Source: a virus (taxonomy: Duplodnaviria; Heunggongvirae; Uroviricota; Caudoviricetes). From it: a stretch of 55,048 nucleotides of DNA. The stretch spans positions 1-55,048 of IMG/VR virus record IMGVR_UViG_2541047910_000003; one strand, given 5' to 3'. The notes under the pieces were generated by a model, which was given only the letters and a program-made list of their open reading frames with translations, ran no database searches and was not told the origin of the DNA. The position numbers and the translations under genes are program-made. Positions 1,451 to 53,680 of the stretch are shown here, one piece after another (the stretch's first letter is position 1; each line of letters starts with the position of its first letter).

Positions 1451-1471
1451 AATGGTGCCGATAATAGGAGT
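1451..1471. repeat. 21-bp direct copy of the thrW 3' end (att junction)
   Basis: aatggtgccgataataggagt is identical to 13991-14011 and 53603-53623. Confidence 0.9.
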
Positions 1472-1614
1472 AAAACACTCGATTAATCTCGTGTTAATGC
1501 CATCACCTACGACCATTACTAATTGATTGAATCTTATAGAAAAAATCATCATTTTCTATGCGTTACAATCAATTTTCACATTACAAACGCTCCGACACTT
1601 TAGCCGGGGAGTTT

Positions 1615-2892
1615 ATGAGATACAAGCCCAATCAATACATAATCTGTGATTCTTACGGTAACTACTATTTGAGGATCACATTGCCTGTGTATATGCAGCC
1701 CTTTTTTGAAGGAAAAAGGACGTTTGTCAGGAGTCTACATACAAGTAATCTTCGTGTTGCACGTAGAAAGCGTGATCAGATTGCAGATGAATACCATTGC
1801 TTACGGGAGAGTGTCGCTCCTGTAAACAGCACAATAGAGAACACGCTGGAACTGTTACGAAGTAAGGCTAAATACGCCAAAACAGCTACCAGAATGCAAG
1901 ATACAGCGTCTTCGTGTCCGTCATTGCTTAAAATTCTTGAAATCTACCTGACAATTAACAGCACGAAGAAGAAGCCAGCCACTTTAGCTAAGGCAAGAAA
2001 AGCGGTAGAGATGTTTCTCTCCTACCGTAAAAAGCCTGATATTGCATTGCAAGATGTGAGCCGCACCACTGTTACAGGCTGGATTGAACACATGCAAAAA
2101 ACCCTTTCACAACAATCAATTGCAAATTATATCAGCCCAATGGCCCAGCTATGGGAGTTAGCTTCATCACGTTACCACGATGCGCCAGAAAGGGCGCTCT
2201 CCCCCTGGCGAGGGCATAGGCTTGATGTGGCACAAAGTAGAGAGAGCTACGAGGCATTTTCTAACAAAGAGCTATTGCAGGTGTTGCAAGTATTTTCCGG
2301 TAATTCAGCAGAAAACAAAGAAATGATGGCTTTGTGTCTTATCGGTTTATATACAGGTATGCGGATCAATGAGATAGCAAGTCTCACAATAGACGATGTG
2401 AAAGAGATCGAAGGTGTGCTGTGTTTTGAAATCACACAGGGAAAAACGAAAGCTGCGGCACGTGTTGTGCCTGTGCATAGCCTTATCACTCCGTTGGTGT
2501 TGTCGCTGCGTGAAAAGCCTCATAATGGCTTTTTGTTCTATCACGCCAGCATTACAGAGCGTGCTGATGGTAAACGCTCTACGTGGCACACGCAGAGATT
2601 TACAAGAGCTAAACGAAAGGCTTTAGGGGAAAAGGGAACAGAAAGGAAAGTGTTTCATTCTCTGAGACACGGAGTAGCACAGCTTCTTGATCGAAATCAA
2701 ATTCCAGAAGACAGGATCGCCCTTCTCCTGGGCCATACACGCGGCAATACAGAGACATTCCGCACATATAGCAAGAATGCAGCTTCTCCAGTAGAGCTTA
2801 AAAACTATATTGAGCTTCTACGCTACCCTGAAATAGAGAAAGGCTTATCAATCAATAAAAAATCAAATTTAAGGCGTAAAACAACGCCATAG
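1615..2892 (+). CDS. int: tyrosine recombinase/integrase
   Basis: C-terminal catalytic motifs are present: GMRINEIASL (Arg), HSLRHGVAQLL (H-x-x-R), LLGH, and a late Tyr (FRTYSK). The ORF is open from 1558, but GGGGAG precedes the Met at 1615. Confidence 0.85.
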   Translation: MRYKPNQYIICDSYGNYYLRITLPVYMQPFFEGKRTFVRSLHTSNLRVARRKRDQIADEYHCLRESVAPVNSTIENTLELLRSKAKYAKTATRMQDTASSCPSLLKILEIYLTINSTKKKPATLAKARKAVEMFLSYRKKPDIALQDVSRTTVTGWIEHMQKTLSQQSIANYISPMAQLWELASSRYHDAPERALSPWRGHRLDVAQSRESYEAFSNKELLQVLQVFSGNSAENKEMMALCLIGLYTGMRINEIASLTIDDVKEIEGVLCFEITQGKTKAAARVVPVHSLITPLVLSLREKPHNGFLFYHASITERADGKRSTWHTQRFTRAKRKALGEKGTERKVFHSLRHGVAQLLDRNQIPEDRIALLLGHTRGNTETFRTYSKNAASPVELKNYIELLRYPEIEKGLSINKKSNLRRKTTP

Positions 2893-2973
2893 ACGCAATA
2901 AAGAGGCTTCAACATAGATTGGTAGCCTCTTTTATAATTACATCGTTACAGAGCGTTTTAGAGGCGTTTACGG

Positions 2974-3687
2974 CTATTCCTGTTTAAAGGCAGGCGTAAT
3001 AGTGTCTTCACCTTCACTACTTGATCTTTCAGCGTTAACACGTTTCTTCAAATTCGCCCCGATGTTCTTAGATGGCTGTGTTTTGATAGCTACAGTGTTT
3101 ACAGTGCCATAAGACACTAATCTGATCTGTTCAAATTCCAAATCAAATACCAGGGATTCGCTTGCCTCTTCTGTGTATTCGATGCCTGTTAAAACAACGT
3201 TCTCAAAAGTTTTATTTTCTGTAACAAGAAGAAAAGGCTGTCTACTGTCCATAATCTGATTCAGATAATCTATAGCCAATGATCTTCTGTTCCCGTTCAC
3301 CCCTGCACTCTTTAACAAGCCAGGATCGCTTTTAATCGGTGTTTCAGTGATCCTTCCTTTAAGAGAAAACTTATTGTTTTTAATTTGAACGTGATCAGAC
3401 ACAGTAGCACCATTCTCTACGGGGTAGCTTGTGACATCTGCCGAACGTCTCACGTTCACATCGTCTACACTGTCAAAGGCCAGCGCCATATAATTTTCAT
3501 AAACGTCATTGCCAGAAGATGCCAAGCCACTGGTAACAATAGCAAACCCATTTTCTCCTTTTGTTTTATTGGCTTTGCTATTTTCGTTTTTTGTAGAGTT
3601 TATATCTTGTTCTGCTTTGTAAACAGCCTGAACGTGTTGTTCTGGAGTATTTGCTGCACGTATGGTTAAAATTCCCGCCGTTGCCAT
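2974..3687 (-). CDS. putative phage tail/baseplate protein (Dit-like)
   Basis: 237 aa. The motif SADVTSYPVENGATVSDHVQIKNNKFSLKGRIT plus a C-terminal beta-rich region recalls Dit-like tail proteins. It sits directly downstream of the tape-measure-like gene. Assignment is from pattern memory only. Confidence 0.4.
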   Translation of the reverse strand: MATAGILTIRAANTPEQHVQAVYKAEQDINSTKNENSKANKTKGENGFAIVTSGLASSGNDVYENYMALAFDSVDDVNVRRSADVTSYPVENGATVSDHVQIKNNKFSLKGRITETPIKSDPGLLKSAGVNGNRRSLAIDYLNQIMDSRQPFLLVTENKTFENVVLTGIEYTEEASESLVFDLEFEQIRLVSYGTVNTVAIKTQPSKNIGANLKKRVNAERSSSEGEDTITPAFKQE

Positions 3688-3717
3688 AATAATTTCCTTG
3701 TAATGTTATGGCGGGAA

Positions 3718-5553
3718 TTACCCGCCGTTGGATTGTCCTGATAAGCTGGTTAATGTTAATGATTTCAAGAAGCTATCCCGACTTGCTCTCGCTGTAAAAT
3801 CCACATAATCGCTTAATCTTGATGTGTCAGAATTAATAGTAAGAGGAACCTCTGTTACCACTTCAAATGTAGGATTCAGATTAAACACAGGAGATAAATT
3901 ATAAGCTGGAGTTGTCATTGTAAGATTATTTAAAGCACCCTGTTTGAGATTGGTTATCGGTGCTTCGCTGACTGACATTTTTACATCTGACACAGAAGAA
4001 GCATTATCATCGAAAAGCCATCCCTTAATTGTGTTAAAAAGAGAATGACTATTATCAGGTGTAGTTGTTGCAGTTCCAGCGCCTTTATATTGGTCAGGAA
4101 CGAGATTAGAAAGATGCTGTTTCATCCCTTCATTGCTTAATGGCGGTGCATCTCCCATATTTTTCTGAATAGCATCTGTCTTATCATCATTACGATTAAA
4201 CCAGTTTACAATCTTCATAATGGCCTCAAAGAGACTTCCTGTAGCTTCTCCCAGCTTCGTAAAATACGGAGTGAGATTAGAAAGGTTTTTCATAAACTCT
4301 TCCGTTACTTTTGGATCGAGAGATTTCATAAAGCCGTCTACAAATGCTACTTGTCTTGCATCAGAAAGCTGTGAAAGCTGTCTGTTTAGTTCTCTGAATT
4401 TAACAATAGATTCTTGCTGTGTTTCTGTTAGCCATTTTCCAGAGGCTTTTTGCTGATTAATACTTTCTTGTACATCTTTAACGGAACGTTGCCAATATTT
4501 TGATGTAAGCATCAAATCATCGCCCAGGTCTTCTAAACGTTGTCCAATTTGGGAGTCTGAAAACCCTTTTTTCATCATTCCATTAACAGCCTTAGAAATT
4601 AATCCGGCTGGATTATCAGCAAATTTTTTAAGGTCGCTCTTGTTAATAACACCGATGTTTAGAAGTTCATTAATAGCGTTATCACCGCCTTTCCACTCGC
4701 CGCCTTTACCAGTTTTTTTATCGACTACATATTCAGCTTCACTATAGGATTTTGCGGCACGTTCCCTAACATCTTTCATCTGATCCAGGTATTTCCTAGC
4801 CCCTTGATCACCCATCATAGAGTCAACGCCGTTTCTATACGCCCATTCTGTAATATTATACATCTGGTTAACGTCTACACCGCCAAGCCTTGCACGTTGG
4901 ATTAATTCTCCTTGTGTTTCAGCATTAGCGAAGCTATTAGCCATAAACTCGGCGGTTTTACTAACAGCCATCACGCCAGCAGCAGCCGTAGCGCCTCCAA
5001 ATAACAGAGCGCCCATAGTGGCGGAATTCCCTGATCCTCCCTTAACGGGGGCAAATTGAGCTTTTCTGTTGCCATTAATCTTACGTTGTTGTTGTTGTAA
5101 GCGTTTCATTTGGCTATTCATACGTGCAAGCGAGATAGCGCCTTGTTCGTATTGTTTCGCTATCTCTCTAGCCTGTGCAATAGCTTTATATTGTTCCGCT
5201 ACAGAGAGGCGGTGCATTGCACTTATAGAGCTTGACACATCAAGGAGTTTTAATTCTGCTTTCTCTTTACGTGCTGCTATTTGTGCCTGTTGCCTTGCCT
5301 GTGCTCTTGCTGCGGCAGCTTGTGCTCTTTGATTCTGTTTTTCGTTTTTCGCTTTCTGTTGAGCAATCTTATCTACTTCACTTTGTGCTTTCTTATAGCC
5401 TTTAGTGACATTATCAAATCTTAATTTAGCTGGCTTGATGTTCTCTGCGAATTCCTTTAAGCCTGTAATAGAGTCTTTCGCTTTTTTCAAGCTGTCTTTA
5501 TCTACACTAAATGTTACTGTGTTCTTAATTTTAGAAGTGTTAATTTCTAACAT
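3718..5553 (-). CDS. tape-measure-like or internal virion protein
   Basis: 611 aa. It has an N-terminal Q/A/K-rich coiled coil (QRAQAAAARAQARQQAQIAARKEKAE) and a hydrophobic Gly/Ala segment (GALLFGGATAAAGVMAV). The remainder is long and helical. No enzymatic motif seen. Confidence 0.5.
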   Translation of the reverse strand: MLEINTSKIKNTVTFSVDKDSLKKAKDSITGLKEFAENIKPAKLRFDNVTKGYKKAQSEVDKIAQQKAKNEKQNQRAQAAAARAQARQQAQIAARKEKAELKLLDVSSSISAMHRLSVAEQYKAIAQAREIAKQYEQGAISLARMNSQMKRLQQQQRKINGNRKAQFAPVKGGSGNSATMGALLFGGATAAAGVMAVSKTAEFMANSFANAETQGELIQRARLGGVDVNQMYNITEWAYRNGVDSMMGDQGARKYLDQMKDVRERAAKSYSEAEYVVDKKTGKGGEWKGGDNAINELLNIGVINKSDLKKFADNPAGLISKAVNGMMKKGFSDSQIGQRLEDLGDDLMLTSKYWQRSVKDVQESINQQKASGKWLTETQQESIVKFRELNRQLSQLSDARQVAFVDGFMKSLDPKVTEEFMKNLSNLTPYFTKLGEATGSLFEAIMKIVNWFNRNDDKTDAIQKNMGDAPPLSNEGMKQHLSNLVPDQYKGAGTATTTPDNSHSLFNTIKGWLFDDNASSVSDVKMSVSEAPITNLKQGALNNLTMTTPAYNLSPVFNLNPTFEVVTEVPLTINSDTSRLSDYVDFTARASRDSFLKSLTLTSLSGQSNGG

Positions 5554-5772
5554 TTAAAACCCCCCCTTATTAATCATTTTACCACCTTCTTTACTTAAGA
5601 AATGGTGTAGAGCCTGATCAATACTCTCGTTTAGTCTGAACATACGGGCTTTTACGCCTTCATATGGAACATCTAAGAGAGAACAGAGATATTTCAGATT
5701 TAACAAGCCTCTAGAATCATTAGCATCTAAATGTACGTGTACACCATTTTTTGATTTCAAAATCACTTCCAT
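5554..5772 (-). CDS. hypothetical protein
   Basis: 72-aa ORF that abuts the start of the 611-aa gene. It is the first gene after the capsid-gene terminator. Confidence 0.4.
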   Translation of the reverse strand: MEVILKSKNGVHVHLDANDSRGLLNLKYLCSLLDVPYEGVKARMFRLNESIDQALHHFLSKEGGKMINKGGF

Positions 5773-5794
5773 ATTTTAATCACCTCTCAAAATT

Positions 5795-5838
5795 TAAAAA
5801 TAAATAAAAAAAGGCGAAGCGTGAATACACGCCACGCC
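5795..5838 (-). terminator. intrinsic terminator after the capsid gene
   Basis: Stem ggcgaagcgtg/cacgccacgcc (internal mismatch), followed on the minus strand by TTTTTTATTTATTTTT. Confidence 0.65.
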
Positions 5839-5857
5839 TCTATTACACGTTAAAATA

Positions 5858-6886
5858 TTATTTAACAGTGATTTGAACGGAGAAGCCTACACCGTGGTTT
5901 ACAACCATCTGGCTATTCTCTGTAACAACGTTAACAGCATCACCACGAGAAGATTCATAGCTGTAACTATACACCTCAGCAGGAGCGGCATTAATCAGTT
6001 CAAAGGTGCTGGAAGCCGCCCCATAGATGGCCTGGTAGACGTTAGAGAATTTAGCGAATTTAGGCACAGCTACAGCGTCTGCGGTCATATGTGCAAGGTG
6101 TAGCGGATCTACCAGTTTAACAACATCAATGTTAGTTCCTGGAATAGTGAACGCTGTCACTCCTGGTAGCAGGTCACGACGCTGATACACAACGTTCCCT
6201 TCTTCCAGTGGGCTTACATACTGGAATGCGTTTGCCATACCAGCAGAGAATCGAATTGCAGAGAAGGCTTCCGGCTTACAGAAAACAACAATACGCTCTA
6301 CAGCAGCCGCCTGGCTTTGTGCTTTTTCGATAATGTCAGTAGCAATCTGATCAAATTCTTTAAAAATCTTCGTGGTGTCAGTGCTGGAAGCGTTCACAGT
6401 GGCTTTCATAGCTGATACGTTAAACAGCTTGCCCCACTCAATTAACACATCATCAGTTTTAGGCGTGTAAGTTTTGCCAGAGAACAAAGAAGCAGCCAAT
6501 ACGCTCTCTTTTGTACGCTGGAATGCAACATTGTGTTTAGCAACATATTCCGCGTAGATATCAGTGAGTGTTTCCTGGAAATCAGTGCCAGGTTTACGTT
6601 TGCCTTGAACATCAGAAGGACGGATCACATCTTCACGCAGGAAGTAAGGGATCTCGATCAGCCATTCTTTACCTTGTTCTCGCTTAGTAACATTGTGTTC
6701 AGAAGAGAAACGAGAGGTTTCTTTGTTGAACAGAGATTCGTTGCTTTCGACAAGCTGGGAAACAGCTACTTTATGAGATGTAACCCCTACAGAATCCGTA
6801 AAATCAAGGGTAGAAAGCAGATAATTTCTAGTGCTATGCGCAGAGAACAGAGGAGCTAAATCAACGTAATCATTACCTAGAATCAT
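5858..6886 (-). CDS. major capsid protein, lambda gpE-like (HK97 fold)
   Basis: 342 aa, the same length class as lambda gpE (341 aa). Colinear resemblances include the C-terminal GFSVQITVK versus lambda EFVSVQLA. It is preceded by a small decoration-like gene, as in the lambda D-E order. Confidence 0.6.
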   Translation of the reverse strand: MILGNDYVDLAPLFSAHSTRNYLLSTLDFTDSVGVTSHKVAVSQLVESNESLFNKETSRFSSEHNVTKREQGKEWLIEIPYFLREDVIRPSDVQGKRKPGTDFQETLTDIYAEYVAKHNVAFQRTKESVLAASLFSGKTYTPKTDDVLIEWGKLFNVSAMKATVNASSTDTTKIFKEFDQIATDIIEKAQSQAAAVERIVVFCKPEAFSAIRFSAGMANAFQYVSPLEEGNVVYQRRDLLPGVTAFTIPGTNIDVVKLVDPLHLAHMTADAVAVPKFAKFSNVYQAIYGAASSTFELINAAPAEVYSYSYESSRGDAVNVVTENSQMVVNHGVGFSVQITVK

Positions 6887-6904
6887 TTATTATTATTCCT
6901 TTTA

Positions 6905-7267
6905 TTAAGAAGTGAAAACAGAATGGAACCCTTCAAGCTGGAAGCCTTTTTTAATTAATGCTGTTTTTGCTGCTTCACTTACAGCATTCAGGGCATCAGC
7001 TTTAATGCATACAAGCCCAGCATTGCTACGTAAAACATCTACAGGCTTGTTGTCTCCAGCCGTTACAAATTCACTCATAACAACATAGATATCATCTCCT
7101 GATACATATTTAGCGCCCGTGCTGGTGATCAAGTCGCCGCACTCAACATCAGCAGGAAGAGAAGCAAAAACCTTGCTTTCTACAGAGGCAAACGGATCAG
7201 TACAATAACTTACAATATCTGTGAAAGTCTTTCTAACTGGAAACAGAGTGTCTAAATCAATAATCAT
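6905..7267 (-). CDS. putative head decoration/cement protein (DUF2190-like)
   Basis: 120 aa, immediately upstream of the capsid gene. The pattern GDLITSTGAKYVSGDDIYVVMSEFVTAGDNKPVDVL is reminiscent of DUF2190-type proteins. Confidence 0.4.
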   Translation of the reverse strand: MIIDLDTLFPVRKTFTDIVSYCTDPFASVESKVFASLPADVECGDLITSTGAKYVSGDDIYVVMSEFVTAGDNKPVDVLRSNAGLVCIKADALNAVSEAAKTALIKKGFQLEGFHSVFTS

Positions 7268-7476
7268 TTAGTAATCTCCTTAGCTTTTAATTTGATTAAT
7301 TCATTAATGGAAGGTGTAGACGGAGAAGAAGGAGAAAAATATTTTTCAACACATCGTTCTACGTCCTCTACAGAACACCCAGCGTATTTAGCTACCATTT
7401 CGGTAATTTGTGGATTAATTTTCAGCATTTCATCTTTATACTTGATGATTTGCTCTTTATCATTTAAGAACAACAT
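7264..7476 (-). CDS. hypothetical protein
   Basis: 70-aa ORF that overlaps the next gene by 4 nt. It is the first gene of the capsid operon. Confidence 0.4.
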   Translation of the reverse strand: MLFLNDKEQIIKYKDEMLKINPQITEMVAKYAGCSVEDVERCVEKYFSPSSPSTPSINELIKLKAKEITK

Positions 7477-7535
7477 TTATATAAACCTTGTTACCTTGTT
7501 TAAAGTAAGAAATACAACTTTTAAGTTGCATAACG

Positions 7536-7569
7536 GGCAAAATAAAAGGCAGCATTTAAAGCCGCCTTT
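7536..7569 (-). terminator. intrinsic terminator between the early-like and capsid operons
   Basis: Stem aaaggcagc/gccgccttt, followed on the minus strand by TTTTATTTTG. Confidence 0.55.
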
Positions 7570-7806
7570 GTAATTACCCTATGTTATGCACACTCCAAGA
7601 TGTATGCATAACAAAGGAAAAAAGAGGTATAATGACACAGTATTACTTAAGGAGGAGAAGCGGGGAGCGGAGATTTTACTCCCCTTTAACGACAAGAAGA
7701 ATTTTTAATATCGAACCAATAAAGGAAAAATAATAACCCTATATAATTATATTAACATACAATATATGAAATGTCAAGATATTTTACAACTTTTTTGTTG
7801 CTTTTT

Positions 7807-8172
7807 TTATTCTTCTGTGATAGTAGCGCCTAAGCGTTGAGCTAGTTCAACAAGTCCATCTCCTACATAGCGAACATCAGAGTCGATATCTTCTATCCAG
7901 TTTGATAGCTCCCATAGCTGAGAGGCTGTCAGGTATGCGTTCTCACGCTTACAGAGCATCTCTACACGCTTAGAGAGGTGCTCAAAGGCATTCACAGCTA
8001 AATCCCAGTGTTTAAACGCCTCATTTAGTGCCGCTGGCGTGTTTTCTTTGTATGCTTCAAGTTCAGCGCGGTTTAAAGGCAGGAGGTAATCATCCTCATA
8101 ATAATTAATTAGTGAGTAAATTGTGTCATACGTGTTTTTGTTCATATTAAAAGTCTCCATAGTGATCAGCAT
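7807..8172 (-). CDS. hypothetical protein
   Basis: 121-aa acidic helical ORF in an operon with the upstream genes. Confidence 0.4.
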   Translation of the reverse strand: MLITMETFNMNKNTYDTIYSLINYYEDDYLLPLNRAELEAYKENTPAALNEAFKHWDLAVNAFEHLSKRVEMLCKRENAYLTASQLWELSNWIEDIDSDVRYVGDGLVELAQRLGATITEE

Positions 8173-8557
8173 TATCTAAAATTTGAAAGTCTGGAACTAA
8201 ATTATTTAGGCCATTGGTGGCGAGATAACCAACGTAGTGGTTATAGTCTTCAAATCCTAAAATCTGGTATTTGCGTAAATCAGAGCTATCAACAATATAC
8301 TCTTTTCTTTTTCTAGGTTTCCAGAATACGCCAGGTGTTGAAGATAAGATTTCTTGTAAGGCGTTAAATTCATCTCCACAAGGCACAGAGGGAGAATGTT
8401 CTATGATCTCTGTTTTCCATTCGCCAGGGGCGCTATTATGCTTGGTGAGCGTAACTAGCTCTTTAAAGTCTTTGCGTCTTAGAATAGATTTAGGTTTACT
8501 TAGAAGAGAAGCTGAATCACCGATTTTCTTAACAACGTTGTTTTTTCTTTTTGCCAT
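8147..8557 (-). CDS. hypothetical protein
   Basis: 136-aa ORF with a basic N-terminus (MAKRKNNVVKK). Confidence 0.4.
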   Translation of the reverse strand: MAKRKNNVVKKIGDSASLLSKPKSILRRKDFKELVTLTKHNSAPGEWKTEIIEHSPSVPCGDEFNALQEILSSTPGVFWKPRKRKEYIVDSSDLRKYQILGFEDYNHYVGYLATNGLNNLVPDFQILDNADHYGDF

Positions 8558-8686
8558 TTATTTTTCCTTTTCTTTTAAAGGAAAACACCCCGAAATATGC
8601 TTCTAACGTGAGAAAGAACAATAACCAATACATAGCTACTATCATAATAATGTTTTCCTTTTATATTTTAATTACATAGAGAGATT

Positions 8687-8965
8687 TTAGAGAGTGGAAT
8701 AGATGAATTCTATTTCTTTATCTAGTCTTTTGAGATTGAATGTAGAGAAAGATAATTCTTTAATCTCTATAACACCGAAATTTGATAGCTGTTTCAGCCA
8801 GAATTTTAAACCAGCTTCAGAGCACCCTGCTCGATGTAACACATCGCTATATTTTAGCGGTGTTGGCTTTCCTTTATAGAGGTAAGCAAGTGTCTCGTAG
8901 ATGCGTTTTCCTGTGTCATTACACTGAATTCTGTCTACTTGATTTTTTACTAAATATTGAATCAT
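8687..8965 (-). CDS. small winged-HTH-like protein
   Basis: 92 aa. SDVLHRAGCSEAGLKFWLKQLSNFGVIEIK resembles a wHTH. Confidence 0.4.
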   Translation of the reverse strand: MIQYLVKNQVDRIQCNDTGKRIYETLAYLYKGKPTPLKYSDVLHRAGCSEAGLKFWLKQLSNFGVIEIKELSFSTFNLKRLDKEIEFIYSTL

Positions 8966-8976
8966 AACCCTCCTTA

Positions 8977-9708
8977 TTAAAATGGAATATCAAAGTCGTC
9001 ATATACATTTGGGTAATGCTTAGAAAAATATGCCTCAATACCATTTGGTCGTTTTAGCCCGTATCTACAAGCTAGTGAATTTGCAAACTCAATAAATGAT
9101 GCTCCTCCTGTTCGTGTGTGTTTCTCCTGGATGATAAGAGAGGCAAAATTCTCTAACACATCCTCCTCATTATCATTAGCTACCTTTTCACTTGATGAAA
9201 CAGGTGTTTCTTCCGTCTCCCACGGCAAAGGCGCATCCCAATCATCAAGAACATCAAAAGAAGGCTGTTTATGGCCTTTAGGTTGTTCCTGTGCTTCTTC
9301 TGCCTCAGAAAGATCAGAGAGTGATGATTCTCCTGGGGGAGTAATATGTGCATCTGTAAATGGTAATGCTTTATAGAGTGATGTTTGACCGTCCCGTGCC
9401 TCTACAGAAAGAACTCCCATATCAACAAACATATTTATAATATTGCGAACCTGGCGATCACTAACCATTCCAATATTAGCTAATGTTTTTTGAGTAGCGT
9501 AACATTCTTGCCCTTGTTCATTGAATCCAGCTATATAGCTATAGATTTCAACGGCTGGCAGTGTAGCGGTGTATTCATTACCAGATGGTGAATACCATTT
9601 TTTAAACATCTTCAACCATTGCTCAACAACTACATATTTTTGTTTACCATCTTTCTGATTTAGACATTTGGCTTTCGCTTCGGCAATTGTTTTGATATTT
9701 TTGATCAT
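8977..9708 (-). CDS. putative replication-initiation/origin-binding protein with an SSB-like C-terminal tip
   Basis: 243 aa. N-terminal wHTH (QKTLANIGMVSDRQVRNIINMFVDMGVLSV), an acidic linker, and a C-terminus ending ...VYDDFDIPF. Confidence 0.45.
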   Translation of the reverse strand: MIKNIKTIAEAKAKCLNQKDGKQKYVVVEQWLKMFKKWYSPSGNEYTATLPAVEIYSYIAGFNEQGQECYATQKTLANIGMVSDRQVRNIINMFVDMGVLSVEARDGQTSLYKALPFTDAHITPPGESSLSDLSEAEEAQEQPKGHKQPSFDVLDDWDAPLPWETEETPVSSSEKVANDNEEDVLENFASLIIQEKHTRTGGASFIEFANSLACRYGLKRPNGIEAYFSKHYPNVYDDFDIPF

Positions 9709-9832
9709 TTAGTTCCTCCTTTGTAAGGACTGTAATTAGTAGTTCATTAACAAGTTTTGGAATTGATTTCCCTTCTGCCTTTGCGCGATTTAACAACGCG
9801 TTATAAGTTGCAGAATCAAAATTAATATTCAT
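9644..9832 (-). CDS. ribbon-helix-helix (CopG/Arc-like) protein
   Basis: MNINFDSATYNALLNRAKAEGKSIPKLVNELL fits a beta-strand plus two-helix RHH pattern. The 3' end overlaps the next ORF. Confidence 0.5.
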   Translation of the reverse strand: MNINFDSATYNALLNRAKAEGKSIPKLVNELLITVLTKEELNDQKYQNNCRSESQMSKSERW

Positions 9833-9855
9833 TTGGTTTTCTCCTTCTCCTGTTA

Positions 9856-10038
9856 TTATTCTTTCTCTGCTTCTTTCTTACGCAGTTCATCAATAATCTT
9901 GAGTGCTTCATTGAAGCAAGCTGCTCGCTCTGGATAACCTCGACTCCTTGCCATATTACGATTCATTACTACTTGGTGGCGTGTAAGCTCACCTTCTTTA
10001 AATGCCTGTACGACGTGTTCCGGTGTAAACCATTTCAT
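9856..10038 (-). CDS. hypothetical protein (first gene of the leftward operon)
   Basis: 60-aa ORF with an AAGGAG RBS upstream. Confidence 0.45.
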   Translation of the reverse strand: MKWFTPEHVVQAFKEGELTRHQVVMNRNMARSRGYPERAACFNEALKIIDELRKKEAEKE

Positions 10039-10149
10039 AAAAACTCCTTATTCAGTTAAAAGAAAAAACACCTTGCAAGCCTGACGGCTTCAAAGTGCAT
10101 TGATTTTGATTATTTAGAGAAGAATGTTTTTCTGTCCCTCTAATACCTA

Positions 10150-10177
10150 TTATTACATATAAAGAAACATTTGTCAA
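10150..10177 (-). promoter_or_regulatory. sigma70-like promoter for the 10038-to-7807 operon
   Basis: On the minus strand: TTGACA, 16 nt, TAATAA. The -35 is at 10172-10177 and the -10 at 10150-10155. Confidence 0.55.
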
Positions 10178-10811
10178 TACCCTTTTCGAAAAAAATCGAT
10201 CTTTTTCAGCATGTTATAATTTGTCTTAGCAATTCGTGCTCTTCTGTGTAGTGCTATTCTTCATTATTGTCTAAAACGCTCTAAAACGCGTTCTAACGAA
10301 GTTTTGATAAAAGCAATACATTCTCTTATGTAGAGGCTATTTATCTCGTCAGAGGCTTATTTAAGGGGCTTATTTTGTATTTGTTAGGTATATGAAAAGG
10401 TGATGGTAGATATAAAACAGAGAGTCACTTTATAAAACGTTCTGTAAAGCCCTGTAGTGAGCTTATATATGTAGGCAATGCGTTTCCATTCCCTACCCTG
10501 CTTAATGCTGTTAGAGAAGCATTTAGACCCCTTATTTTTAATTACCTAAAGTATCCTCTATACATCTCTGTTATGAAACACCTCTGAATCCTTCATAAAA
10601 CACATTATGACGCAAAGAACACCTTTTCTAAGGTGATTCCCTTCCTGAATGCTGTTTCTTGCGTCAGAGAGCTACATAGAGCTTATAAAGCTATTATTAA
10701 TAATAAAGTAGATAAAGTAAGTAAGATAAGTAAGAAGATTAACTAAGATAGATAAGATTAATAAGATCAGAATTCTCTTTCGGTGTCGCCTCTGGCTTTT
10801 CCACCGAAAAC

Positions 10812-10969
10812 AATTACACGACTACAGAATGTAGGAAGTGGAATTGTATTGAGGCTTAGTGAAATTACACGAGGAAAGCAGAGTGTAATTGAGCTTTAGC
10901 CGCTCTCTCTTCGAGTAATTACACAACTACAGAGAATAACGAGAGTTATTAAATGTAGGAAGTGGAATT
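10812..10969. repeat. repeat cluster (AATTACAC boxes plus two exact 18-mers)
   Basis: AATTACAC at 10812, 10863 and 10917, and inverted at 10883. aatgtaggaagtggaatt is exact at 10828-10845 and 10952-10969. Confidence 0.8.
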
Positions 10970-11239
10970 AAGAGGTAGAGAGATAGAGTTAACACATAAG
11001 CAATCAGTATGATTGGTTAGGTGATTACTCTTCTGCGCACAGCGCAATAGTATTTCTTCGTGGGCGTTACCGCCAACGATAGTTACACGAAGAAAGTAAC
11101 GCTTTGCTTTCGGTGTGAGCGGAACGGGCCAGCCAACGTAGCCCAAAGGTAGCGGAGTAAGGCTGCTTGCCAGAGAGTGAAGCTAACGCCGGAAGGCAAA
11201 AAGATCATATATATATAGTATAAAGAATATTATTTATAT

Positions 11240-11295
11240 TATTTAATTATAGTATTTAATTATAGTATTTAATTATAGTATTTAATTATAGTATT
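11240..11295. repeat. four perfect tandem AT-rich 13-mers (DNA-unwinding-element-like)
   Basis: tatttaattatag occurs four times head-to-tail (11240-11291) plus a partial fifth copy. Confidence 0.9.
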
Positions 11296-11298
11296 GGT

Positions 11299-11398
11299 GG
11301 AACTCATTTCCTAGGTAGGTAGGAACTCATTTCCTAAGTAGGTAGGAAACCACTTCCTAGGTTACTTCCTAAATAGATCGGAAATCATTTCCTAGGTG
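11299..11398. repeat. iteron array A (about 23-bp units)
   Basis: ggaactcatttcctaggtaggta, ggaactcatttcctaagtaggta, ggaaaccacttcctaggtta and ggaaatcatttcctaggtg are directly repeated. Confidence 0.85.
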
Positions 11399-11413
11399 TT
11401 ATTTATACTTATC

Positions 11414-11471
11414 GGGTATCAGTTTTGATAGGGGTATCAGACTTGATAGGGGTAACAGAATTCTGTGGGGG
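11414..11471. repeat. iteron array B (18-bp units)
   Basis: gggtatcagttttgatag, gggtatcagacttgatag, then gggtaacagaattctgtggggg. Confidence 0.8.
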
Positions 11472-12142
11472 TAGCTCACAGTGACCTACCGTTACTACCA
11501 ACTTTCTTACAGAGAGCATTTCAGATAGCTGAATGTAACCTCTCGTTACATCCATTTGTCACATAGCACTCTGTGTAATGCCTTTCTATGTGTGTGCCAT
11601 AATCCCCCTATATTCCCTGTGTAAATCATAGAATAATGCTCTCTATTCCCTGTGTAATTCCATACTAAAAATTCAATGAAAAAGTAGCTTAAAAGTGCAA
11701 TTCTCACTTTCTTCACTTTTACATCACTTTCGCAAAGCCTTGTGTAATGCGGCTTACAGCGCACTATCAGAAATTGTTGGCTAAAAATTGTTCTGCTTGT
11801 TTCTTAATGAGTTTTCTTGTTTGTGCAAATTTTAAAATTTATTTTGTTTTTACAGCCTTATTTCGTGTAATGCGTGGCATAGCAAGCCCTTTTCTTGTGT
11901 TGTCAAGACATTTGGCAACGTTCAAACATCTGTTTAGAAATGCCAAATTGTTGATCTAACAAATAAACCTGTATAAACAGAACACCATTTAATCTATTCC
12001 CCTGTGTATCCATTAGGCATACCAAATGAATACATCTAAATCGTGTAATATTCCGTACCTATAAGGCTTGAAACAGACAAAATGAATACGATATACTCAT
12101 TTGCATTGAAGTAGTGCCAAATCGATACATTAAGAGGATTTT

Positions 12143-12682
12143 ATGAGCAATATCGGTTATAAGCGTGTGAGCACTGTAGATCAGAACACTGATCGCCAGC
12201 TTGCAGGAGTAACGCTTGATAAAGTCTTTGAAGATAAGCTGTCAGGTAAAGACACTAACCGTCCAGGATTGCAGGCGTGTTTATCCTATCTGAGAGAAGG
12301 CGACACCTTACACGTCCACTCTCTTGATCGTTTAGGGCGTAACACCTTAGACATTCTGGAGTTAATCAAACAATTGAATGATCGAGGTGTAATTGTTCGC
12401 TTTCACAAAGAAGGAATCATTGCTGACATTACAAGCGCGATGGGAAAGATGATGCTTACGATGTTGTCGGCAGTTGCAACGTGTGAACGTGAACTGATGT
12501 TAGAGCGTAAACGAGAAGCGCAAGCCGTCAATCCTACAAAGCGTGGTAAAGGGAAGGCAGTAGATAGGGAAGGTATAAAGAAAGCCCTTTCCGCTGGCGT
12601 GTCAGTGCGTAAAACCGCCGAGAGCTTTAATGTTGCTCCTTCAACGGTGCAACGTATCAAGAAGGAAGAAGAGGAGGCGTAA
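12143..12682 (+). CDS. serine recombinase (resolvase/invertase family)
   Basis: GYKRVSTVDQNTDRQ contains the catalytic Ser motif. LDRLGRN is present and a C-terminal HTH (VRKTAESFNVAPSTVQRI) follows. 179 aa, the same domain order as Tn3/gamma-delta resolvase. Confidence 0.85.
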   Translation: MSNIGYKRVSTVDQNTDRQLAGVTLDKVFEDKLSGKDTNRPGLQACLSYLREGDTLHVHSLDRLGRNTLDILELIKQLNDRGVIVRFHKEGIIADITSAMGKMMLTMLSAVATCERELMLERKREAQAVNPTKRGKGKAVDREGIKKALSAGVSVRKTAESFNVAPSTVQRIKKEEEEA

Positions 12683-12699
12683 TGCCTCCTTGATATTTG
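12673..12699 (+). terminator. terminator after the resolvase gene
   Basis: ggaggc-gtaat-gcctcc followed by ttgatattt. Confidence 0.5.
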
Positions 12700-13009
12700 G
12701 GGATTCTGGATTTTCCAGATCGGGGGGCGCTGATCTTCGCGTTAAACATTGATCACGTTTGCGCCGATTTCAGATAAAAAGGCAGCTATTAAGCAATACG
12801 TAACTTTTACAATTAGTGAAATTATCTAAAACACAAGTTATATAGATGAGAAAATGAAATATTATCTTGAACAAATCAAACAAAACAACACATCATCTTG
12901 TTGACACCATGCAAAGTGAATAGTAAGCTATTATATGTGAAAATTTGCACATTGCATGCAATAAAAAATAAATGATACCTTGTTGTTGTTAAATCAATAG
13001 GGGGTATCT

Positions 13010-13168
13010 ATGCGCTTTATCTTATCCATTTTAAAAACCTGCAGAACCACAATTACTTTAGCTGTAATTGTTACCATCATATACCTCATCTATTTTACCC
13101 CTCGAGATAAAATCGATTCACTAGCGATCATCGTTCATGCAATGGCTACATTAACTAAAAAACTTTAA
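13010..13168 (+). CDS. small hydrophobic membrane peptide (52 aa)
   Basis: Hand translation gives MRFILSILKTCRTTITLAVIVTIIYLIYFTPRDKIDSLAIIVHAMATLTKKL. A GGGGG RBS lies upstream. A promoter (TTGACA, 17 nt, TAAGCT) is at 12901-12929. Too short for the ORF track. Confidence 0.4.
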   Translation: MRFILSILKTCRTTITLAVIVTIIYLIYFTPRDKIDSLAIIVHAMATLTKKL

Positions 13169-13234
13169 TAATTTCACTATCAGGCGCACAAACACATCTT
13201 TGATTGCTGGATGTGTTATGCGCCTACTGGTGAT

Positions 13235-13387
13235 TCAATCCTTAAGCCATTTCAACTCACTAAGGAGTTTTCTTTCTTCGTTCTCTCGCTGTTTACGCTC
13301 TAGCCAGGCTTTTCCCTCTGGCGTAGACAGGAACTTACGAGCGTGAATCTTGCGGTTATTACGTTTTATAGCTGCAATGTTTTTCAT
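13235..13387 (-). CDS. small basic protein (50 aa)
   Basis: Hand translation gives MKNIAAIKRNNRKIHARKFLSTPEGKAWLERKQRENEERKLLSELKWLKD. It converges on the 52-aa ORF across a long hairpin (13183-13224). Confidence 0.35.
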   Translation of the reverse strand: MKNIAAIKRNNRKIHARKFLSTPEGKAWLERKQRENEERKLLSELKWLKD

Positions 13388-13990
13388 CGTGTTGCCTCTG
13401 TATTCATATGAAAATTAACAAGTTACATACTACACAGGGAGACTACGCATAAAACACAATACAAGTAAAGATACATTTTCAAGACAATAGGAGCCATAAA
13501 GCGCCTTTGATGGTTATACCAAAAAATAAGCGCCGTAGGCGTATCCACTAAAAGGGCTTTTTCACAAAAGCTATGAAGTCTTAGCAGTTCTTCTCTTATC
13601 AGGCACCCGTTGTACTCCGGTGGACGAAACCGTGCTAGAGCTTGATTCTTTCCCGATCAAGTTAGGTTTTGAAGAGGTGGGCTTTAATCCACTATTGCAC
13701 TTAAAACTCTTCCCATCATTTAGCCTGTTTATCCTCTGCAACGTCTCACGACGTGTGGCATCATTGGACACCGCGCCAGGTGTGGAACATCTTGCTAAGA
13801 GTTTTGGTAGAAGGTTTAGAGACGGTGGCACGTCTTCCAGCTTCAAAGGAACTTGTTACGAGGTTGAGCCTGGGAACTACTCGCCCATACGTGTTACACT
13901 ACCAAAGCCCATAACAACGTATAGGCGTTTGTAAGTGATAACAGAAGATACAATTTCTTAGAGAAGTTAAGCTAAGTTATTGATTTTCTT

Positions 13991-14038
13991 AATGGTGCCG
14001 ATAATAGGAGTCGAACCTACGACCTTCGCATTACGAAT
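13991..14038. repeat. 48-bp direct copy of the thrW 3' end (distal att junction of the P22-like prophage)
   Basis: Identical to 53603-53650. Its first 21 bp also equal 1451-1471. Confidence 0.95.
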
Positions 14039-17425: not shown

Positions 17426-17499
17426 GTCGTTAATTCCTATGCGTGGTTTTACGATACCGAAGCCCTGACTGTTACCGCAGTTGGGGCTTCACTGTTTTT
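17426..17499 (+). ncRNA. sar-like antisense RNA covering the ant translation-initiation region
   Basis: Plus-strand promoter TTGATT (17391-17396), 17 nt, TACACT (17414-17419) inside the 5' end of ant. Terminator gaagccc...gggcttc plus TTTTT at 17459-17499. Same layout as P22 sar. Confidence 0.45.
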
Positions 17500-53602: not shown

Positions 53603-53650
53603 AATGGTGCCGATAATAGGAGTCGAACCTACGACCTTCGCATTACGAAT
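53603..53650. repeat. 48-bp att core within and next to thrW
   Basis: Identical to 13991-14038. Confidence 0.95.
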
Positions 53651-53680
53651 GCGCTGCTCTACCAACTGAGCTATATCGGC
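53605..53680 (-). tRNA. thrW: tRNA-Thr (CGU), thrW
   Basis: The reverse complement reads GCCGATATAGCTCAGTTGGTAGAGCAGCGCATTCGTAATGCGAAGGTCGTAGGTTCGACTCCTATTATCGGCACCA. Adjacent to proA, as in E. coli. Confidence 0.95.

Follow-up and report, generated by a model that had tools for sequence, protein, structure and literature searches.

What might a phage-like element use 2.1 kb of gene-free DNA for? We addressed this question at positions 10039–12142 of a 55,048-nucleotide stretch of viral DNA (IMG/VR record IMGVR_UViG_2541047910_000003; the whole stretch is called the window here). The gap at these positions belongs to an integrated element of about 12.5 kb (1451–14038), which is bounded by two copies of the 3′ end of thrW, 21 bp and 46 bp long, and whose extent agrees with that of homologous elements in Escherichia coli genomes. 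An earlier sequence-only reading had taken the gap to be one large vegetative or plasmid origin, accompanied by partition or resolution sites. From comparison with related loci, we consider it likely that the gap is a cis-acting hub of a phage-satellite-like element integrated at thrW, and that it is a string of separate modules of which an iteron origin is one.

Three open reading frames (ORFs) of at least 60 amino acids (aa) can be called mechanically inside the gap, at 10949–11146 (−), 11546–11764 (−) and 11747–11959 (+). They are intact in 0 of 20, 5 of 20 and 8 of 19 full-length homologues, respectively, and relatives that are at least 94% identical differ by many indels of 1–2 nucleotides. 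Small conserved ORFs were ruled out by these broken frames and indels. Judged by these alignments, the gap is non-coding, which bears out the earlier view that it holds no credible ORFs.

The gap sequence is present in 743 of 5,426 complete E. coli genomes (about one in seven), and RefSeq annotation over it is almost nil across these 743 genomes. Pathogenic strains are among its hosts, for example APEC O1, an O111:H11 strain and an isolate from Shiga-toxin surveillance. Of the 894 places matched, 892 are on chromosomes, and a plasmid collection gave only two partial matches, one of them in a 4.9 Mb record, with no sign of a plasmid form. No match was found when the gap was compared with a phage collection by megablast, and distant blastn of the same collection returned a single 46-nucleotide element of T5-like phages. 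A scan of genome contigs with a single major capsid protein sequence returned one close relative.

For comparison, we assembled 48 related loci from E. coli genomes and IMG/VR. Every intact relative has a gene-free gap of 1.5–2.4 kb between the gene for the 60-aa protein and the recombinase gene. Blocks of the gap are 85–95% identical among relatives, and the flanking proteins fall to ~60%. A conservation profile of the gap against 23 related loci resolved it into universal blocks and replaceable modules:

10039–12142: gene-free gap, flanked by a leftward 60-aa gene (9856–10038) and a rightward serine recombinase gene (12143–12682)
10064–10364: universal block 1, candidate promoter and operator region (23/23 loci, mean identity ~85%)
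10414–11014 and 11064–11239: replaceable modules, in two versions, W (window-like) and X
11014–11060: universal block (17–20/23 loci)
11239–11439: replaceable iteron module
11439–11490: universal block (11–15/23 loci)
11539–11590: universal block (17–18/23 loci)
11639–11790: universal block 4, with two GTGTAAT boxes and a hairpin AAGCC-loop-GGCTT (21/23 loci, ~88% identity)
11790–12142: replaceable module that tracks the type of recombinase

The repeat families listed in the sequence-only reading are present at their places and lie far above chance, with corrections to single copies that are given below.

An iteron array and its cognate initiator-like protein

The candidate origin consists of an AT-rich tract and the iterons directly to its right, and its putative initiator is encoded on the other side of the 60-aa gene:

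8977–9708 (−): initiator-like protein of 243 aa, with an HTH_36 winged-helix N-domain, a disordered acidic linker, a helical C-domain and a ..DDFDIPF tip
11200–11295: AT-rich tract of 95 bp, 85–95% AT, with (AT)n and a 13-mer repeated five times; candidate DNA-unwinding element
11299–11392 (+): cognate type A iterons, four palindromic 13-bp GGAAnyCAyTTCC sites spaced by 23, 23 and 35 bp
11414–11449 (+): type D iteron GGGTATCAGnnTTGATAG, two copies, non-cognate here
11453–11471 (+): type B iteron, single copy TAACAGAATTCTGTGGGGG
11472–11484 (+): type E iteron, single copy TAGCTCACAGTGA
11533–11551 (+): type C iteron, single copy ATGTAACCTCTCGTTACAT

An iteron origin is recognized by at least three direct, regularly spaced and helically phased copies of a site bound by the initiator, by an AT-rich region that adjoins them and by a cognate initiator of matched specificity. 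The motif GGAANYCAYTTCC occurs four times in the gap, at 11299, 11322, 11345 and 11380, and nowhere else in the 55 kb, and it turned up in none of 100 shuffles. Tandem repeat analysis (TRF) found the 23-mer in 2.8 copies at 11299–11362. Relatives have 2–5 iteron copies at a spacing of 22–23 bp. To the left, the adjoining tract contains the tandem 13-mers that had been noted before, which TRF scored as 5.1 copies at 11230–11295 with 96% matches. In every intact locus such a tract lies directly left of the iteron array, with a repeat unit that differs among relatives, some of which carry an 11-mer in 2.5 copies. Because the 13-mer itself is not conserved and the AT-richness of 85–95% is kept, composition appears to be what matters in this tract.

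Evidence that the array has a dedicated protein partner comes from the 243-aa protein. This protein is a mosaic, in which one of five unrelated N-terminal types (A–E) is joined by an acidic linker to one of two related C-domains. Each N-type is paired with its own palindromic iteron array, always directly right of the AT-rich tract:

N-type A: iteron GGAAnTCAtTTCC, 2–4 pattern matches beside the AT tract
N-type B: iteron TAACAGnnTTCTGTnGGGG, 4–5 pattern matches beside the AT tract
N-type C: iteron GATGTAACnnATCGTTAC, 3–4 pattern matches beside the AT tract
N-type D: iteron GGGGTATCAGnnTTGATA, 2–3 pattern matches beside the AT tract
N-type E: iteron TAGyTCACwrTGA, 2–5 pattern matches beside the AT tract

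Consistent with this pairing, the window combines a type A protein with four type A sites at 11299–11392. Type A iterons occur in all 12 intact loci with a type A N-domain and are absent from type B, C and D loci; among type E loci they are absent from all except three, where they form a second, distal array. In an automated tally, 37 of 39 loci had the cognate array next to their AT tract. The two others were L006, a decayed remnant beside thiM, and L020, a locus that is cut off and nevertheless has four cognate type E copies; only the remnant is a real exception.

Types A, B, C and E are each found on both backbones, which differ in the intervening DNA (W or X) and in the C-domain (DFDIPF or YDSIPF), with their iterons unchanged. 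The match between protein and site has thus survived independent recombination in the 1.6 kb that separates gene and site. The chance of four extra matching combinations of type and backbone is about (1/5)^4, or ~0.002, a rough figure as the loci are related. Matched specificity between protein and array is seen across five N-types and five iteron types, and this comparison across loci shows, at the level of sequence, that N-domain and iteron array are exchanged together.

Several features suggest that the partner protein acts in replication. It matches Pfam HTH_36 (1.5e-5) and PHROG families of replication initiators, DnaD-like and O-like proteins (4e-8 to 8e-5). An AlphaFold2 (AF2) model has a confident winged-helix N-domain (residues 30–125), a disordered linker (128–179) and a helical C-domain. 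The top PDB matches in Foldseek were the RepA_N initiators 4pql and 4ro3 (E = 0.011, TM 0.41–0.56), amid many generic winged-helix folds. The second of these is the N-domain of RepA from PLE, a satellite in Vibrio cholerae (PMC7145576). As for membership of the RepA_N family, Pfam gives HTH_36 only and the RepA_N fold match is weak. In nearly all full-length variants the C-domain ends in DFD[IL]PF or YDS[IL]PF, a tail that resembles the acidic tip of E. coli SSB (..DFDDDIPF). The SSB tip recruits PriA and many other replication and repair proteins (PMC7145534, PMC5531588), and the tail of the 243-aa protein may recruit partners in the same way.

In the mechanism that we propose, dimers of the 243-aa winged-helix protein would bind the 13-bp sites and open the adjacent 95-bp AT tract. 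The conserved C-domain and its SSB-tip-like tail (..DFDIPF) would then bring in host partners of SSB, such as PriA or the chi subunit of Pol III, or the replisome of a helper phage. The system would be an iteron replicon of an already known kind, in the style of satellites and lambda, and the protein now annotated as a 'transcriptional regulator' would be better named a putative replication initiator. The earlier proposal of an origin holds in this narrower form: the predicted origin core spans only about 200–300 bp (about 11200–11400), and its supposed large size is not borne out, as the remaining ~1.8 kb appear to be separate modules.

A number of points weigh against placing a replication origin here. 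The co-variation proves a cognate protein–DNA pair and not that this pair starts replication; binding, melting and replication are predictions. Kinship among the loci makes the counts overstate their independence, and only about four combinations of backbone and type are truly extra tests. The RepA_N fold match is weak (E = 0.011, with none at or below 0.001), generic winged-helix regulators score similarly, and the sources annotate the protein as a 'transcriptional regulator'. Its gene lies 1.6 kb from its sites, unlike the arrangement of lambda O or of SaPI rep, and some type E loci hold a second, full type A array. Many plasmid origins have DnaA boxes or IHF sites, which the lambda origin lacks. 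Between 10039 and 12142 we found no DnaA box (TTWTNCACA, or TTATCCACA within one mismatch), no IHF consensus (WATCAANNNNTTR) and only five GATC sites, which do not cluster. Finally, for over half of the gap, comprising blocks 1 and 4, the GTGTAAT boxes and a folded block, any role is conjectural.

The same pair of protein and sites could also be explained if the 243-aa protein were a repressor or a centromere-binding protein and the arrays its operators or a partition or silencing site, with the true origin, if any, located elsewhere or supplied by a helper. The names given in the sources ('transcriptional regulator' or 'HTH domain-containing') fit this explanation, as do the palindromic form of every site, which is usual for dimeric repressors, the similar scores of generic MarR, Fur and TubR winged-helix folds and RepA_N, and the absence of DnaA and IHF sites from the gap. 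However, iterons of lambda and of RepA_N initiators are likewise palindromic (PMC7145576), and the arrays always adjoin the 85–95% AT tract and do not lie next to a promoter or a gene start. The PHROG matches are only to initiator, O-like and DnaD-like families. Moreover, the layout of the protein, in which a disordered linker joins the variable DNA-binding N-domain to a conserved C-domain ending in an SSB-tip-like tail, suits a recruiter and not a repressor. Partition, which the sequence-only reading had also suggested, finds no support in the neighbouring genes: no ParA/ParB-type domain and no NTPase of the ParA, ParM or TubZ type was detected in the element proteins scanned, ten with Pfam and PHROGs and nine with NCBIfam, a set that covers the ORFs of 60–72 aa only in part. 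We regard a repressor or centromere function as unlikely and favour the role of replication initiator.

To the right of its cognate array, the window carries iterons of the other four types. TRF found an 18-mer in 2.6 copies at 11414–11459, and three iterons of 18 bp had been described at this place; the third of them belongs to a different iteron type, the single type B site. The first two are of type D, an iteron that makes up the array next to the AT tract only in L005 and L030, both of them type D loci, with three pattern matches amid a longer run of related GGGGTATCA units in the former and two in the latter. In loci with a type B or type E initiator, the B and E sites form arrays of 4–5 and 2–5 copies, respectively, at a spacing of 22–23 bp. 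Type C sites form an array of 3–4 pattern matches in the type C loci L007, L023 and L028. The segment with the single B and E sites (11453–11490) is kept in 11–15 of 23 loci. The single B, E and C sites and the two D sites of the window are probably fossil iterons, left from earlier exchanges of the module. In the three type E loci with two arrays (L024, L033 and L035), the cognate E array stands beside the AT tract and a type A array of 3–4 copies follows further right, which suggests stacked origins or the recent capture of a module.

Modules around the candidate origin

Block 1, at the left end of the gap, is predicted to be promoter and operator DNA, a view that comes from patterns in its sequence. 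It is better conserved than its surroundings would suggest: the 60-aa protein beside it has only ~62% identity between clades. The following features lie in or near this block:

10149–10177 (−): P_L, a sigma-70-like promoter (TTGACA-17-AATAAT with an upstream TG) for the leftward operon of the 60-aa, 62-aa, initiator and downstream genes
10212–10220 (+): P_R candidate, an extended −10 TGTTATAAT that points into the gap, read from the sequence
about 10270–10317 (+): TCTAAAACGC twice and an imperfect inverted third copy GTTTTGATA, downstream of P_R (TRF)

P_L has its −35 at 10177 and its −10 ending at 10149, with 11 of 12 consensus matches; all 23 aligned homologues retain the −35, and both backbones a −10-like hexamer. 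At the position of P_R, homologues read TATAAT, TATGAT or TACATT, and a promoter scan for two hexamers did not detect P_R. The divergent promoters of the sequence-only reading are thus recovered at the level of consensus only. If both are active, P_L would drive the initiator operon and P_R, back to back with it, would read into the gap. Folding of block 1 with RNAalifold gave no convincing structure (−5.3 kcal/mol).

The repeats downstream of P_R may be operators. The motif CTAAAACGC occurs at 10271 and 10281 (+) and at 2953–2961 (−), and three matches were reached in 3 of 100 shuffles; the reverse copy reported near the integrase end exists, although it starts at 2953 and not at 2956. Of the three copies claimed for GGCTTATTT, two are exact and the third reads GGCTATTTA. 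The operator-like TCTAAAACGC varies from one to three copies among elements. Further copies or variants of the 10-mer, followed by TCTGTAA, lie at 2945–2975 (−) and at about 10428–10445. The copy at 2945–2975 is just downstream of a Dit-like gene and precedes a bidirectional terminator-like hairpin; this distal copy is found only in elements of the window type. A nut-like (boxA/boxB) reading of the TCTAAAACGC region was dropped, as it offers only a 3-bp hairpin with weak co-variation.

The TCTAAAACGC element, 46–50 nucleotides long, matches 394 phage records at 80–89% identity. The 40 records listed are all T5-like phages of 107–123 kb, except for one partial record of 8 kb, and the matches lie in unannotated or terminal-repeat DNA. 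In Klebsiella phage KPN4 (L012), the element is at 3002–3047, within 2 kb of gene-free DNA that also contains DnaA boxes and a LexA-like box. The conserved untranslated repeats of T5-like phages form a region discussed by Davison (bioRxiv 10.1101/866236); the sequence of the motif was not found in that text. Similar to our gap, the terminal repeat of T5-like phages (the injection-stop region) is a dense mosaic of direct and inverted repeats and palindromes that is more conserved than the adjacent genes (bioRxiv 10.1101/866236). What the two have in common is this one element, with TCTAAAACGC twice and its inverted copy. By contrast, the T5 regions are rich in DnaA boxes, of which the gap has none, and the structural genes of the E. 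coli element resemble those of phi92-like and not of T5-like phages.

Between block 1 and the AT tract lie an inverted repeat, a purine-rich spacer and a strongly folded block:

10608–10666 (−): long imperfect inverted repeat with an inner hairpin (I4), terminator-like for leftward transcription (site at 10635–10620, −)
10700–10767 (+): purine-rich low-complexity spacer (TRF periods 4, 9, 13 and 26)
10776–11200 (+): strongly folded block of ~430 nucleotides, with hairpin modules AATTACAC...GTGGAATT, GC-rich hairpins and a long-range closing helix
11034–11046 (+): conserved hairpin TGCGCACAGCGCA, followed by TATTT and a second strong hairpin (17–20/23 loci); flagged as terminator-like

Within the folded block, AATTACAC boxes are found at 10812, 10863 and 10917 and two exact 18-mers at 10828 and 10952. 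Folded as RNA, positions 10765–11215 reach −162.7 kcal/mol on the plus strand (z = −8.66) and −130.5 kcal/mol on the minus strand (z = −5.65). None of 100 shuffles was as good as the plus-strand fold, the centroid of which is nearly the structure of minimum free energy. In a sliding scan, z was −3 to −5 at 10780–11140 and nowhere else nearby. The X version of the block is also structured, and shares with the W version only the hairpin TGCGCACAGCGCA with TATTT and the motif GTGTGAGCGG.

It is possible that this block acts as an accessory element of the origin, comparable to the hairpin priming sites of IncQ oriV, or that it is a structured transcript. In the latter case, positions ~10776–11200 (+) would encode a large structured non-coding RNA, transcribed from P_R, that serves as a primer, a regulator or an RNA that interferes with a helper, which would be compatible with the adjacent origin. 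The excess of the plus-strand fold over the minus-strand fold, the 11 G–U pairs on the plus strand versus 3 on the minus strand, and the rightward extended −10 upstream all fit such an RNA. Paired columns also vary half as often as unpaired ones (12 of 296 versus 12 of 154), and five one-sided changes keep G–U pairs. However, Rfam 15 gave no match in the gap at gathering scores and none at E values up to 5 in 9700–12500, and the equivalent block of the other backbone folds better on the minus strand (z = −5.5 versus −3.5). About eight changes break pairs, and no compensatory double change was seen in 16 W-type or 13 X-type sequences. These sequences are too alike for this to decide the matter, and covariation neither supports nor refutes a functional RNA. 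Moreover, the fold arises mostly from inverted repeats at the DNA level that are gained and lost by recombination, with sequence conserved rather than structure. We consider a non-coding RNA conceivable though doubtful; a structured RNA, single-strand priming hairpins like those of IncQ oriV and an array of protein sites are all possible readings of the block.

In one relative (L005), a 105-bp deletion corresponding to 10819–10923 of the window falls exactly between the direct repeats AATTACACGACTACAGA and AATTACACAACTACAGA, and indels give the purine-rich spacer different lengths in relatives of at least 94% identity. Hairpin modules of this region therefore seem to turn over by repeat-mediated recombination.

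To both sides of the candidate origin lie GTGTAAT boxes, 9 of the 14 in the window being in the gap, which makes up 3.8% of the window and for which ~0.26 would be expected. Those of the left cluster are inverted, those of the right cluster are direct, and the two opposed clusters flank the candidate origin. Two boxes belong to block 4, which is not coding, as single-nucleotide indels attest; RNAalifold gave only weak structure for it (−8.9 and −15.7 kcal/mol on the two strands). In E. coli JX21CE33 (L011), at the equivalent of 11733–11753, the conserved hairpin AAGCC-TTGTGTAATGC-GGCTT carries its 11-nucleotide loop in inverted orientation, GCATTACACAC. One GTGTAAT box is flipped by this small inversion, which is mediated by the palindrome.

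We considered whether the conserved blocks and GTGTAAT boxes are packaging (pac/cos) signals, read by the packaging machinery of a helper phage, or decoys for proteins of such a phage. The scanned proteins include none with a terminase or portal domain, yet the element has a capsid protein, a tape-measure-like protein and a tube initiator that is 56–61% identical to those of phi92-like phages; the excess of boxes in two opposed clusters and the element common to the untranslated terminal repeats of T5-like phages would also suit such signals. Against this, similarity of the gap to the phage collection is limited to that one T5-like element, and exact scans of IMG/VR for two conserved motifs matched only island copies and never a contig of at least 100 kb. 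A packaging or decoy function thus appears rather improbable.

The right end of the gap is best read, from its sequence, as a res-like site, formed by its last ~130 bp:

12005–12131: candidate res-like site and operator of the recombinase gene, with five half-sites CCAAAT(G/C)(A/G)ATAC (CCAAATGAATAC-type)
12143–12682 (+): serine recombinase of 179 aa, with Resolvase and HTH_7 domains (Pfam 1e-33)

The half-sites are at 12005–12019 (inverted), 12022–12035, 12078–12091, 12090–12103 (inverted) and 12117–12130, which makes two inverted pairs and one single half-site in 127 bp, with a promoter-like site at 12068–12097 among them. All 13 loci with the type 1 recombinase have 3–4 half-site matches, compared with 0.04 in shuffles, and loci with the type 2 recombinase, which is 61% identical, carry ATCACTACAC three to four times instead. 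The gene of this small serine recombinase is directly adjacent, as for a res site, and the closest solved relatives of the protein are the gamma-delta and Tn3 resolvases (~1e-29), followed by Gin (3e-26). Resolution sites had been suggested before, in connection with the field of GTGTAAT boxes that runs up to this gene; the suggestion of such a site fits these data, and the candidate is built from CCAAATGAATAC-type half-sites and not from the boxes. As half-sites for the resolvase the boxes were ruled out, since they occur with both recombinase types and a different, type-specific motif lies at the gene. The adjacent resolvase would resolve multimers of the replicon at the res-like site and repress its own promoter.

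Alternatively, the recombinase could act as an invertase on the gap, which would then be a switch of the Hin/Gin type that can be inverted or shuffled. Among PHROGs, 'DNA invertase' indeed matches the recombinase best (6e-55), and the opposed GTGTAAT clusters and the inverted hairpin loop in L011 might be taken as traces of inversion. However, blastn of the gap against 23 related gaps revealed no inverted segment, only palindromic matches of 19–59 nucleotides in three loci. In addition, the gamma-delta and Tn3 resolvases are slightly closer relatives of the recombinase, and its candidate half-sites are confined to the 130 bp that immediately precede the gene, an arrangement like that of res. 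Given the type-specific half-site clusters, the kinship with gamma-delta and Tn3 and the lack of inverted segments, a switch is very improbable and a res-like site remains the best reading. Similar to the res sites of Tn3 and gamma-delta, the gene of a small serine recombinase of about 180 aa is preceded by inverted and direct half-sites (~127 bp here) that overlap a promoter-like site. The half-sites themselves are unrelated to TGTCYNNTA of Tn3 and gamma-delta, which have three defined subsites, each an inverted pair, in about 120 bp in place of two clear inverted pairs and a single half-site, and no transposase is found here.

Parallels with known replicons and the nature of the element

The closest parallel to the candidate origin is found in PLE. 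Its 2.7 kb non-coding region contains four repeat families, one of which consists of semi-palindromic iterons bound by RepA, and RepA and this region suffice for replication, which takes place only during infection by ICP1 (PMC7145576). The N-domain of RepA co-varies with the ori, whereas its C-domain is conserved, and the Odn nuclease of the helper copies the RepA N-domain and attacks the PLE iterons, which has been proposed to select for replacement of the module (PMC8263062).

Both PLE and, probably, the E. coli element are satellites linked to a large virulent myovirus. Similar to PLE, the E. coli element has its candidate ori apart from the initiator gene, in a gene-free region of several repeat families (here 2.1 kb and at least six families), and in its initiator-like protein a conserved C-domain is joined to an N-domain that co-varies with the ori; the PLE RepA N-domain (4ro3) is also among the top two fold matches of the 243-aa protein. 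The two differ in that they have no detectable sequence similarity and that Pfam assigns HTH_36 instead of RepA_N. Five specificity types are found here, compared with two replicon modules described for PLE, the initiator has an SSB-tip-like tail, and the AT tract is a long one with tandem repeats. The two also differ in host, in helper family and in integrase, here a tyrosine integrase at thrW.

A second parallel is ori-lambda, which has four palindromic sites in a direct array by an AT-rich region, lies inside the O gene and is without DnaA boxes. The candidate origin likewise has four palindromic sites (~13–19 bp in the two systems) that would suit a dimer, in a direct array by an AT-rich region and with no DnaA boxes. 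Like lambda O, the 243-aa protein has an N-terminal DNA-binding domain and what may be a C-terminal recruiting domain, and O-like PHROG families match it weakly. Unlike in lambda, the iterons are in non-coding DNA 1.6 kb from the initiator gene, the tail resembles the SSB tip, and no P-like helicase loader was identified in the element. The oriV of IncQ plasmids (RSF1010) combines iterons, an AT-rich segment and hairpin single-strand initiation sites. As in this oriV, the iteron array and AT-rich segment adjoin a strongly palindromic block, although the block of ~430 nucleotides is far more complex and no domain of a RepB′-type primase or RepA helicase was detected in the proteins scanned.

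The genes of the element suggest a satellite. Pfam and PHROGs identify a tyrosine integrase, a Dit-like tube initiator, a tape-measure-like protein and a gpE-type major capsid protein, in addition to small ORFs, the 243-aa HTH_36 protein and the serine recombinase. For the tube initiator, the match to phi92 gp135 has E = 4e-79; its identity is 56–61% to the counterparts in phi92-like and Phapecoctavirus phages and only ~28% to those of rV5-like phages. The capsid protein matches phi92 gp124 weakly. Scans of element proteins with Pfam and PHROGs revealed no portal or terminase domain, and scans with Pfam, PHROGs and NCBIfam no domain of a helicase, primase or polymerase. The element is therefore most likely a satellite of large virulent myoviruses. 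The identity of the tube initiator hints at a phi92-like or Phapecoctavirus helper. A literature search found no paper that describes the island or satellites of phi92-like phages, and the element probably represents an undescribed satellite family.

The autonomous plasmid-like phase that had been deduced from the size of the origin finds no support in these data: 892 of 894 matches are chromosomal and no helicase, primase or polymerase domain was detected in the proteins scanned. PLE, the best-studied analogue, replicates only on infection by its helper (PMC7145576).

These observations can be joined, tentatively, into a speculative scheme. In this scheme, phi92-like myoviruses (Stephanstirmvirinae), which are large and virulent, would be exploited by a family of E. 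coli satellites not yet described, and the gap would serve these satellites as the hub of replication and sensing. At the origin, the initiator would hijack partner proteins of SSB by mimicking its C-terminal tip. The five interchangeable modules of N-domain and iterons, together with the fossil iterons, would record an arms race with origin-directed nucleases of the helper, as Odn is for PLE. The ~430-nucleotide block would be a new structured RNA or a single-strand priming element, and the element shared with T5-like phages would be a sensor of phage infection. If so, E. coli would offer a tractable counterpart of the Vibrio PLE replicon, with a small initiator, a defined ori and five swappable natural variants of specificity. 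How replication starts in satellites of virulent phages in which no helicase or primase of their own is detected could then be tested in a model organism, as could the use of an SSB-tip mimic as a recruiting device and the part of helper phages in driving the turnover of replicons. For annotation, the lesson is that long 'empty' stretches of islands can be dense cis-acting DNA.

Several observations concern the surroundings of the element. Its relatives also sit at a tRNA-Gly gene. In the window, the element forms a tandem array at thrW with an HK620/Sf6-like prophage that shares its attachment site. Partial copies of thrW mark each junction of this array, which was noted at 1451–1471, 13991–14038 and 53605–53680. 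The prophage extends from ~14039 to 53604, between the element and the intact thrW, and includes a sar RNA at 17427–17493. Just outside the element, at 960–1298 (−), is the truncated N-terminus of a P4-type integrase. In E. coli 2015C-4498 (L001), a Shiga-toxin surveillance strain, an IS5 interrupts the tape-measure-like gene and the capsid gene has an internal stop; despite this damage, the gap of this strain is complete and 96% identical.

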